64,000 nucleotides of DNA from Parcubacteria group bacterium Greene0416_39 (GTDB lineage Bacteria; Patescibacteriota; Minisyncoccia; Minisyncoccales; UBA10102), in contig VMEU01000003.1 of assembly GCA_007375675.1 (NCBI GenBank), positions 8,692 to 72,691 of the forward strand, read 5' to 3'. Each line of letters begins with the position of its first letter. Within the stretch, counting starts at the first letter, position 1. A program made the position numbers and the translations under genes. The notes under the pieces were generated by a model that was not told the origin of the DNA, did no database searches, and saw only the letters and a program-made list of their open reading frames with translations. Below are positions 54,166 through 56,382 of this stretch, piece after piece.

Positions 54166-56382
54166 CTACTTCAGGTTTTTGCCGCTGTGGAACTGGCGGT
54201 GGACATCACGAAGCTGTTTTGAAGTCACGTGAGCGTATATTTGGGTTGTAGCTGGATTTTTATGCCCCAGGAATTCTTGGATTAACCGAAGGTCTACCCC
54301 CTGCGAGAGAAGGTCGGTGGCAAAGGAGTTATGGCTTATAAACCCATCAGTGATAAGGTTGCCATGCCATCTACTAATGCCAAAGTCATATACCGAATAA
54401 CGAGGCGAAGAAGAAACTTTCGTTTTTTCATGGAGCTTCAACCATTGAATGGTATCTGCATACGCAATCTTTTTTAACTGGGCCAAGTACTGGGAATTGT
54501 AGCCAGCGTCTTCTAGTTGCTGTACAATATGTTGCACAGTTTTGCGGCTTGGGTTGAGTTTTTCTATGTATCTGCCTATATCGTTGATGCTGTAGTTTCT
54601 CCGCAAGGCCTGGATCCACTGAATCTTTTTTCGTGTTGTATCCTTTCGTATGACTTCAAGGAGCGGTCCCACTGGTAGTTTCTGGCCCTGGAAATGTTTT
54701 TCTACGTTCAGAAAACGTCTTTTGAATGTTTTTATGTGTTCCAAAAATAGCTCCTGATCCGGTTTGTGGAGGATATGGAGCGTATAAAATTTGTGGGAGA
54801 ATAAACGCTTTTGAGGCAATATTACTGTTCTATTGCGCCAGTTGAGATGGGAGTCTATTCCAAACCTCAAGAGTCCCATTTGAACGTCTTTAAGGAGTTC
54901 TACGCTTGAAGAAAATATCCTTATATTGCCCGAGTTTCCTTCGGCATCGTAGAATCCTGCGAGAAACTCGGCTAGTTCGTTCAGTGGCGCAGAAAGCATT
55001 TCCTTGGGCATTCGTCGGCCATTAGCGCCTGGTTCAAAACCAATCTGGAGTAGAAACTCCACAAGCTCGGCGTTATAAACAGTAAGCTGCCAAGAGTTGC
55101 TGACTTTACTTTTTTTTAGGGTTGGGACGACATAGAACAATTCATTAATCCAATTCATATAACTCTTGAGCATCTCTTTGTTTTTGTCTGTAAGAAGAAC
55201 CGCGCGCCTAGCTCTACTTACCGTACCGTCTCCGTAGATATACCCAAGGATTCTTGCAAAACGGGGATGTACGAATGGCTTTCCTTGGATTGTTATCTTT
55301 TTCACTCCCATGACGTAGTCACCAATCTTTAGCTCCCTTGCTTGTTTTTCTTCTATGCCTTTTTTCCCTATCGTGAAAAGTCTGTGATTGGGGGAACAAA
55401 GAAGGTTATAGCCACCAGCCCATAAAGAAAGGAGAGGAGTAATATGGTAGCTTCGCTCTTTCAGAGTAAGATTTTGGAATTGAAAACCTGCCCATTCGAG
55501 TGCCTGAACTTCTGCGGACGTTTTAAAATATAAATCCCGTGCCGATACAATACCATCACGTAAAACTATTCGCGTGGTAGGGGAGAGGCAGTGGCGCAAC
55601 GTATGAGGAGTGGTAAAAGAGGGGACACCCGCACGGAGTGCGTATTGCTTCACGATATTCTCAATAGAACGGGCGGAGAGTCGTTTTGAGGCGTTTTTTG
55701 GCCCCCTGTAATTGATGAATAAGGGTTTTTCATCGTCTCTCCGGGTCTTAAGATATTCCTTGAGAGCGTTTACGGCACGCTCCGAAAAGTAGACTGGGCG
55801 AACTCGCCCACCCTTTCCGGTGATTACCACTTCAAGCTGCGTAGTATCGGAAGATATCTTGATCTGTTCTCGGTCAAGACTCACAAGTTCCGCCACCCGC
55901 AGGCCCGTAGAGAAGAAACTTTCGAGGATCGCACGATCCCGCAGTCCTGCATTTGTGGAAGAATTGGGTGCCGCGAGAAGTTTCTTGAGCTGTTCGAGAT
56001 TTAAAAACTTTACTTTGCGTTCTTCTTTTTCCCGGATAAGTTTTATTTTATCTGCTGGGAGAGAAAGAATGTTTCGTTCGGTAAAGAATGACAGCAGGGA
56101 TCTTACAGCTATAAGATAATAGTTCTGCGTAGAACGCTTCAGAGGTTCTTTAGTAGTCTTGTGGAGGGTTTGAGAAAGAAAGAGGCGATAGTCCCAGATG
56201 TGCTGGTCGTCAAGCTCGTGAGGTTTTAGGGATTGGAGGTTTTGTGAGGAAAACCAATCAGAAAATTTTTTTAAGAATCTTGCGTATGTTTCCTGGCTTT
56301 TGTATCCCAAACCTTTCTCAACGTCACAATATTCAAGAAAATCTTTTATATGTTCAGTAATGGTTTTTTTGCTTTTTTGCAT
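54166..56382 (-). CDS. Xer/phage-integrase-family tyrosine recombinase containing an intein
   Basis: Exteins are residues 1-264 and 686-738: SAM-like N-domain, [19 protein letters not shown] | [34 protein letters not shown]. Confidence 0.88.
   Translation of the reverse strand: [738 protein letters not shown]
54328..55590 (-). mobile_element. 421-aa intein with LAGLIDADG homing-endonuclease domain
   Basis: Cys1 codon TGC at 55590-55588 ([13 protein letters not shown]). CSPNHRLF block B. [11 protein letters not shown] and [11 protein letters not shown]. Terminal ..GFISHN (AAC at 54330-54328) followed by Ser+1. Confidence 0.85.

Follow-up and report, generated by a model that had tools for sequence, protein, structure and literature searches.

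A 64,000-nucleotide stretch of the Parcubacteria group bacterium Greene0416_39 genome (GenBank assembly GCA_007375675.1, contig VMEU01000003.1, positions 8,692 to 72,691; hereafter the window) encodes, on its minus strand at 54166..56382, a Xer-type tyrosine recombinase whose active site is interrupted by a predicted protein-splicing element. We read this gene as a housekeeping chromosomal recombinase that has been invaded by a mobile class 1 intein, and we put the probability of this reading at roughly 0.8. The insert itself combines a Hedgehog/intein (HINT) splicing domain with a predicted monomeric, two-motif LAGLIDADG homing endonuclease, both apparently functional. Homologues interrupted at the same position recur across the candidate phyla radiation (CPR) and in some genomes labelled as DPANN archaea.

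The joined exteins form a single Xer-like recombinase

The open reading frame (ORF) begins with ATG, contains no internal stop and encodes 738 amino acids (aa), which divide into an N-extein of 264 aa (aa 1–264, 55591..56382), an intein of 421 aa (aa 265–685, 54328..55590) and a C-extein of 53 aa (aa 686–738 plus the stop codon, 54166..54327), all on the minus strand; the exteins joined amount to 317 aa. The protein is identical to P0001, recorded as 'integrase family protein, Parcubacteria group bacterium Greene0714_21'. Across the whole protein, Pfam matched Phage_integrase (PF00589) in two stretches (8.4e-33), an N-terminal SAM-like domain (PF02899), LAGLIDADG_3 (PF14528), also in two stretches (1.4e-16), and Intein_splicing (PF14890; 1.1e-10, 41.9 bits against a gathering cutoff of 35.8). 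The preliminary description of this DNA had taken the ORF for a tyrosine recombinase of about 317 aa with a 421-residue insert between H264 and S686, and each motif that it quoted lies at the residues it gave: box I at aa 158–169; TPHTLRH at aa 258–264; CLSPTTR at aa 265–271, opening with Cys265 as intein residue 1; CSPNHRLF (block B) at aa 329–336; FISHN at aa 681–685, ending the intein with His684-Asn685; SFATDLL at aa 686–692, at the start of the C-extein; and IYAHV at aa 715–719, with Tyr716.

When the insert is removed, the two Phage_integrase stretches merge into one that covers profile positions 1–170 of 172 and scores 135 bits, against 114 when split. In this spliced form PF00589 spans aa 125–300, and PF02899 and PF13495 cover aa 12–103. 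A phmmer search of the PDB aligned the joined extein to XerA (4a8e) and XerD (1a0p) without a gap across TPHTLRH/SFATDLL, the corresponding region being TPHQLRHSFATHML in Pyrococcus XerA and SPHVLRHAFATHLL in Escherichia coli XerD. With the spliced sequence as query, 7994 hits fell below 1e-20; the best were intein-free CPR proteins of 316–320 aa with up to 80% identity, and the top match measures 317 aa, exactly the predicted spliced length. Judged by the single Pfam stretch, the gap-free alignment to XerD and XerA and the 317-aa length of intein-free orthologues, the two exteins behave as one uninterrupted recombinase.

The N-extein comprises the SAM-like core-binding domain and most of the catalytic domain, including R162, K190, H260 and R263, while the C-extein, which aligns to the XerD/XerA C-terminus, supplies H707 and the nucleophile Tyr716 (54235..54237). 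These residues are invariant in 82 aligned homologues and fall on the catalytic positions of XerD. The insertion point lies between His264, one residue past the catalytic Arg263 in the H-x-x-R-H box, and Ser686, and the intein parts R162, K190, H260 and R263 from H707 and Y716. The recombinase is accordingly cut inside its active site, as had been proposed.

Among the NCBIfam equivalog models, the spliced extein scored 218.8 bits with TIGR02224 (XerC; cutoff 335.15), 217.7 with TIGR02225 (XerD; cutoff 329.6), 215 with NF001399 (cutoff 279) and 192.6 with the XerA model (cutoff 220). Because it lies below every one of these cutoffs, we call the host Xer-like and not XerC or XerD proper; judged by its sequence, it is a CPR-specific Xer-like lineage. 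Characterized Xer proteins (XerC and XerD, 1a0p; the single-recombinase XerH and XerS; XerA, 4a8e and 5hxy) share its two-domain build and the R-K-H-R-H-Y set and align with it from end to end, whereas the window host stands about equally close to the XerC and XerD models and under both cutoffs. To our knowledge, no characterized Xer carries an intein.

Domain architecture and predicted structure of the insert

Scanned alone, residues 265–685 matched LAGLIDADG_3 and Intein_splicing, the latter at up to 42.9 bits against the cutoff of 35.8, and also the intein parts of NCBIfam models for intein-bearing IF-2, RFC, DnaB, RNR, RpoA'', VMA, RtcB and GyrA. The match to TIGR01445 (intein_Nterm) was marginal and below cutoff (E = 0.039), and no NCBIfam model for an intein-containing tyrosine recombinase was matched.

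The boundaries of the insert, which runs from Cys1 to His-Asn and is followed by Ser+1, are fixed by motif limits, by junctions that are the same in 110 clusters of homologues and by the structural comparisons given below. Its N-terminal splicing region (aa 265–370, 55273..55590) contains Cys265 of block A and S330-x-x-H333 of block B, and is supported by conservation, by beta strands modelled over 271–360 and by a match to the VMA intein 4o1s. The homing-endonuclease domain (aa 373–549, 54736..55266), identified through PF14528, conservation, the model and a match to I-DmoI, has its first LAGLIDADG motif at aa 378–388 (ILGYIYGD385G, 55219..55251) and its second at aa 473–483 (FLAGFYDAE481G, 54934..54966), with D385 and E481 as the predicted catalytic residues. 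Then follow an accessory five-helix domain (aa ~555–643, 54454..54720) and the C-terminal splicing region (aa 645–685, 54328..54450), where block F (V-Y-D666-F) and block G (TDGFISH684-N685) are conserved and the Intein_splicing match ends at aa 685.

An AlphaFold2 model of the precursor, built on 82 homologues, reached a mean predicted local distance difference test score (pLDDT) of 86, with values above 90 over most of the intein and beta-rich splicing regions at both of its ends. Residues 373–549 form two alpha-beta-beta-alpha-beta-beta-alpha units in this model (pLDDT > 90), and the accessory domain is resolved into helices 572–584, 590–597, 603–607, 613–625 and 631–640 with similar scores (pLDDT > 90). 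A DNA-binding role for this accessory domain is plausible from its modelled helices, its sole Pfam match being a weak one to HTH_Mga (aa 607–638, E = 0.089). Residues 687–721 of the C-extein were left unplaced, with pLDDT values of 30–50, which may hint at a catalytic domain that is disrupted in the precursor.

A sequence search of the PDB with the intein returned just a short block-B stretch of the VMA intein (4o1s), and a comparison of folds was therefore needed. The best Foldseek match in the PDB was the TliVMA intein (7qss; E = 1.6e-21, TM-score normalized to the target, TMt, 0.68), and PI-PfuI, PhoVMA, PI-TkoII and PI-SceI were also recovered. XerA, XerD, XerH, IntI and the LAGLIDADG enzyme I-DmoI ranked after the inteins; I-DmoI and I-Tsp061I gave TMt values of 0.62–0.67 (I-DmoI ~0.66). 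Collectively, the domain models, the predicted structure and the Foldseek matches confirm the intein fold anticipated for residues 265–685.

The same split HINT domain with an inserted two-motif LAGLIDADG enzyme and an accessory domain is found in class 1 homing-endonuclease inteins of known structure (TliVMA 7qss, PhoVMA 7qst, PI-PfuI 1dq3, PI-TkoII 2cw7 and PI-SceI 1vde). The VMA/ATPase and RNR/Pol inteins of archaea and yeast likewise have Cys1, a block B of the form (T/S)xxH, the block F Asp, His-Asn and a +1 nucleophile, and VMA-type inteins are similarly inserted in a conserved active-site motif of an enzyme that handles nucleic acids or nucleotides. In contrast to the solved inteins, with which it shares 9–18% identity, the Xer intein resides in a tyrosine recombinase and uses a Ser native to the host at +1.

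Conservation of splicing, endonuclease and recombinase residues

Searching with the whole protein recovered more than 100 clusters of ~690–790 aa with the same Pfam architecture. Conservation was counted over up to 110 clusters covering the site in question, whose overall identity ranges from 31 to 66%. The junctions, H-x-x-R-H followed by C-(L/I/V) at the start of the intein and H-N followed by S or C at its end, are present in 110/110 clusters. Among the splicing residues, C265 and H333 are invariant (110/110 each), position 330 always carries S or T (110/110), and D666, H684 and N685 are each found in 106/106; the +1 residue, at 686, is Ser in 102 clusters and Cys in 4. The acidic residues of the endonuclease are nearly as constant (D385 in 108/110; E or D at position 481 in 108/109). 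Residue positions and conservation across the 110 clusters thus bear out the splicing signature of the preliminary description, namely Cys1, block B, two LAGLIDADG motifs, His-Asn and Ser+1. Since the residues for splicing, endonuclease and recombinase activity have been kept despite identities of 31–66%, all three activities appear to be under purifying selection, which argues against a decaying remnant.

Intein length varies little, from 408 to 430 aa over 100 proteins and 72 genomic loci, and at the 72 loci with both junctions every intein measures 410–430 aa; no mini-intein occurs among these 100 proteins and 72 loci. Two candidates for mini-intein derivatives, P0110 and P0113 (408–415 aa), are intein-free Xer proteins with N-terminal extensions, and a further set, P0115–P0120, represents a different, Tyr-less Xer derivative. 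The latter CPR proteins (436–486 aa) share 41–47% identity with the Xer N-extein, with H260 replaced by E and R-H by R-N, R-D or R-W; from about the position of intein insertion, an unrelated domain of ~200 aa ending in ...GRADL...IEVDTVSLFKLWYNLS... takes the place of the Tyr-bearing C-terminus. Such proteins appear to be Xer derivatives that lost catalysis and were fused to a different, possibly nuclease-like domain.

Distribution and apparent mobility of the intein

The insertion point is not unique to the window genome. A pattern scan of GTDB, with one genome per species, found the Xer intein in at least 91 species genomes, a figure to be read as a lower bound. Its CPR carriers include Saccharibacteria, Woesebacteria, Roizmanbacteria (in the closed chromosome CP066689.1), Gottesmanbacteria, Nealsonbacteria, Nomurabacteria, Yanofskybacteria, Kaiserbacteria, Peregrinibacteria and Kazan.

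Six metagenome-assembled genomes (MAGs) labelled as DPANN also encode the Xer intein. All four of the spliced DPANN hosts that were scored pass the curated cutoff of the archaeal XerA equivalog model (231–269 bits against 220), and one DPANN host scores 203 bits against Pyrococcus XerA but 113 against E. coli XerD, whereas the highest scores of the CPR hosts are with the XerC and XerD models. Between a Nanoarchaeota-labelled protein and some CPR proteins, the inteins are 44–48% identical and the exteins 26–29%. These comparisons suggest intein transfer between bacterial Xer and archaeal XerA.

Xer-intein genes with 41–46% full-length identity to the CPR protein were also recorded in MAGs labelled as Nevskiaceae, Gammaproteobacteria or Pseudomonadales (L014, L017, L018, L022, L024, L029, L058, L061, L072 and L088). 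The proteobacterial labels are probably mis-assigned or the bins contaminated, so that these would not be true occurrences.

An exhaustive HMMER search with the intein alone, reported as representatives of 50%-identity clusters, gave 28 representatives below 1e-30 and about 30 at ~1e-26 or better. Nearly all of these ~30 best matches are tyrosine recombinases cut at HxxRH/C; beyond them come weaker hits of partial length in proteins of 800–2400 aa, for the most part to the endonuclease domain. The same intein family is found in more divergent tyrosine recombinases on a Nanoarchaeota-labelled contig from Hainich groundwater (L007/L064) and in a Desulfobacterales-labelled relative (L086), the latter with a short N-extein of 154 aa on the ORF as read. 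The L007 member is surrounded by many small ORFs and by Bro-N, RadC and MazE-like genes, possibly the setting of a mobile element. The few divergent, integrase-like hosts imply that the intein moved among tyrosine-recombinase subfamilies.

Within the host family, none of the 19 sequences closest to the window extein (up to 78.5% identity) has an intein, and the nearest intein-bearer is 68% identical. In a neighbour-joining (NJ) tree of the exteins, the window protein is the sole intein-bearer in a clade of seven, and Fitch parsimony requires at least nine gains or losses among 220 sequences, a count that is rough. Pairwise identities of exteins and inteins are loosely related (Pearson 0.58, Spearman 0.37), with discordant pairs in both directions: exteins 50% identical with inteins at 74%, and exteins 70% identical with inteins at 37%. 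Because the distribution on the host tree is patchy and the divergence of intein and extein poorly correlated, the intein looks mobile, as would be expected of homing with recurrent invasion and loss.

Proposed splicing and homing, and a possible regulatory role

In the proposed mechanism, the 738-aa precursor would be translated in a form presumably inactive in DNA cleavage, because Arg I, Lys, His I and Arg II on the one side and His II and the Tyr nucleophile on the other lie 421 residues apart. An N-S acyl shift at Cys265 would be followed by attack of Ser686 in a transesterification, and then by cyclization of Asn685 and an O-N shift. The expected products are a restored TPHTLRH-SFATDLL motif, with ...TPHTLRHSFATDLL... 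as the predicted spliced-junction peptide, an active 317-aa recombinase and a free intein of 421 aa. The freed intein, as a monomeric two-motif LAGLIDADG endonuclease, would cleave xer alleles that lack the intein, within the sequence coding for this motif, and would be copied into them as the break is repaired. Such homing would account for its patchy occurrence, its spread over most lineages of the CPR and its presence in the archaeal XerA of DPANN.

Several considerations weigh against an invaded housekeeping recombinase. Splicing, endonuclease activity and homing are all activities that we infer from sequences and a structural model. The complete lack of degenerate endonucleases and mini-inteins is somewhat unexpected in a simple homing cycle, and the endonuclease is perhaps kept for another reason. 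The NJ tree behind the gain and loss count used the top 120 of the 7994 hits as its intein-free set, which biases it towards the query. For the DPANN-labelled short contigs, neighbouring genes do not identify the domain, and the archaeal attribution therefore rests on the MAG labels and the XerA host type. Regarding the host, Xer equivalog scores of ~218 bits (XerC/XerD) that stay below their cutoffs count against a role in dimer resolution; such a role would follow from family resemblance, conserved synteny and the presence of a single tyrosine recombinase in the 64-kb window.

The uniform retention of the endonuclease bears on a different account, in which the intein has been domesticated and conditional splicing, responding to redox state, DNA substrate or stress, gates Xer and with it dimer resolution and division. 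With its active site cut, the precursor must be cleavage-inactive, and the unusually uniform length and endonuclease motifs, with no mini-inteins in 72–100 examples, are compatible with selection beyond homing. A candidate redox partner of Cys1 is C329, just before block B (C-[ST]-P-x-H), which is kept in 100 of 110 clusters; its codon lies at 55396..55398 of the window. There are also parallels elsewhere: PMC4513877, PMC5238726 and PMC6195587 report conditional splicing for the RadA, DnaB and RecA inteins. The inteins of mycobacterial RecA and Pyrococcus horikoshii RadA (PMC4513877 and PMC5238726) likewise interrupt the catalytic core of a recombination protein whose activity requires splicing, and provide the established precedent that links splicing to recombination and repair. 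RecA and RadA, however, carry out strand exchange that depends on ATP and have neither fold nor chemistry in common with tyrosine recombinases, and their conditional splicing was demonstrated by experiment, whereas the Xer intein is known from its sequence and a model.

Against such regulation, the closest orthologues are intein-free, so the intein is not required for Xer function or its regulation in near relatives; patchy distribution with discordant intein and extein divergence is the classic pattern of a selfish mobile element; and a Ser at +1 makes the best-known trap, a Cys1-Cys+1 disulfide, impossible. We consider domestication unlikely, and equally so that the full-length intein serves as a post-translational switch, acting for example through Cys329-Cys1 or a DNA substrate, that makes dimer resolution conditional. 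If it did, completion of division would be conditional in these ultra-small episymbionts. Independently of such a switch, the intein's shared presence would directly trace recent gene flow between CPR bacteria and DPANN archaea.

Genomic locus, the empty site and further alternatives

Upstream of the window gene lie MraY, MurL, a Mur ligase, FtsW, a sigma-70 factor, MurG, GltX and an ORF of 83 aa; the opposite strand downstream carries a 78-aa ORF, DUF2103, RarA/MgsA, RadC and RecQ. A Wildermuthbacteria locus (L005) has the order MraY-FtsW-MurG-GltX-132aa-Xer, in which Xer is intein-free, measures 318 aa and is 74% identical to the window extein. The window locus (L001), with MraY..FtsW-sigma70-MurG-GltX-83aa-Xer::intein, is the filled counterpart of this empty site. 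At the point of insertion the window DNA reads CATACGTTGCGCCAC and TCCTTTGCC on the two sides of the intein, and the empty site in L005 reads CATACGCTCCGCCAT and TCTTTTGCG; the empty-site DNA of the Wildermuthbacteria intein-free allele is ACCACTCCCCATACGCTCCGCCAT followed directly by TCTTTTGCGACGGACCTTCTTGCC. Conservation in the reconstructed homing site is chiefly at codon positions one and two. Ser686 is the host's own residue, with intein-free orthologues reading ...LRH-SFAT.

Because an intein-free orthologue fills the same MraY-FtsW-MurG-GltX slot, we interpret the window gene from its synteny as a housekeeping chromosomal Xer and not as the integrase of a mobile element. The preliminary description had linked splicing to the mobility of adjacent accessory DNA, which would require such an integrase. 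Hosts of that kind may exist, given that the same intein family occurs in divergent integrase-like proteins with short N-exteins (P0254, P0258, P0262 and P0265; L086) and that L007 has Bro-N, MazE and numerous small ORFs around it; the window gene itself has an antitoxin-like gene and RadC a few kb away. The window gene, however, follows a conserved MraY-FtsW-MurG-GltX block, has its intein-free orthologue at the same position in a different CPR class, belongs with orthologues of 316–320 aa that number in the thousands across the CPR, as expected of a core gene, and has no phage or plasmid genes adjoining it. An integrase is very improbable here and is rejected for the window gene by this synteny, although it is possible for the few divergent hosts; control of the mobility of adjacent DNA is unsupported at this conserved cell-division, cell-wall and gltX locus.

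It is more improbable still that the insert is a dead intein, a decaying remnant that no longer splices and leaves the recombinase non-functional. Nothing positive speaks for it: splicing in this family has the standing of a prediction, and the structural model leaves C-extein residues 687–721 unplaced. The reading frame is nevertheless intact, and the splicing and recombinase catalytic residues are invariant or nearly so in ~100 diverged homologues. The intein also matches its host in G+C content (0.428 against 0.451 for the window), a similarity that leaves no compositional sign of recent arrival. No substitute is at hand either: a tblastn search found no second tyrosine recombinase and no second copy of the intein in the 64-kb window, all other hits having E >= 0.24.

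Finally, a free-standing homing-endonuclease gene mis-joined or fused into a recombinase ORF, conceivable in a metagenome-assembled source, is rejected as next to impossible, because the identical 738-aa protein was recovered from two NCBI assemblies and, independently, from a Logan assembly, more than 100 clusters and at least 91 species genomes, including the closed chromosome CP066689.1, share the in-frame architecture and junctions, and the insert ends exactly at intein blocks A and G, its removal restoring the host motif.

Other features of the window

GyrB and DnaE (DNA polymerase III alpha) are common intein hosts in other organisms. In the window, GyrB (9678..11684, plus strand, 668 aa) and DNA polymerase III alpha (23314..26529, minus strand, 1071 aa) have normal lengths and no intein domains, and ThrRS and a ClpB-like gene are likewise intein-free, which leaves the Xer intein as the sole intein in these 64 kb. 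The 78-aa ORF next to the recombinase (53929..54165, plus strand; MNKKTPKNENKRDRFRRLAQRRTN...) is basic, runs convergently and stops at the base adjoining the recombinase stop codon; Pfam gave no match for it, and two of the three assemblies call it as a gene. An Rfam scan of the window returned nothing above the gathering score besides seven tRNA genes (6344..7318, 35390..35961 and 40931..41003), comprising two tRNA-Met and one each for Asp, Tyr, Thr, Trp and Val.

Relation to previous work and significance

The insertion site had been put forward as undescribed, and this held within the full-text literature covered: the main prokaryotic intein survey, phage intein surveys and a CPR rRNA-insertion study were among the texts in which no natural intein in a tyrosine recombinase was found, the supplementary tables of the survey (PMC4760082), subscription literature and intein databases being outside this scope. 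Automatic names at the Joint Genome Institute (JGI) already read 'site-specific recombinase XerD/intein/homing endonuclease', and the sequences are public. What we describe would therefore appear to be a genuine intein of ordinary mechanism, in a host family and at a site not previously described. Inteins are biased towards enzymes of replication, recombination and repair. The tyrosine-recombinase host is real, as the preliminary description had it, but it fits this known bias and is less anomalous than was implied.

The CPR is unusually rich in mobile insertions driven by LAGLIDADG enzymes. According to PMC11270868, insertions in CPR rRNA genes carry LAGLIDADG enzymes such as I-ShaI, with a sporadic, site-specific distribution from which homing was inferred. 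Those enzymes are mostly single-domain proteins in group-I-intron-like insertions that are spliced as RNA (PMC11270868), whereas the Xer enzyme has two motifs and resides in a protein-splicing intein of a protein-coding gene.

With this family, tyrosine site-specific recombinases join the natural hosts of inteins, and the placement, again in the catalytic core and one residue past Arg II, lends support to the rule that enzymes acting on DNA are invaded by inteins at the conserved motifs of their active sites. What stands out most is how widely the intein has spread in the CPR, that it occurs in DPANN XerA and that an intact endonuclease has been kept so uniformly. The endonuclease would bring a new LAGLIDADG specificity, and an intein located in a tyrosine recombinase and followed by Ser at +1 could serve as a model for designing split or conditional tools of the Cre/Flp type. 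A single intein family at one site in both bacterial Xer and archaeal XerA also makes a handy marker of horizontal exchange, both within each of these uncultivated, co-occurring radiations and between them. For the organisms themselves, a Xer-type recombinase would depend on protein splicing in many CPR species and in some DPANN-labelled genomes, and in the genome studied here no other Xer-type recombinase was seen in the 64 kb that hold the interrupted gene.

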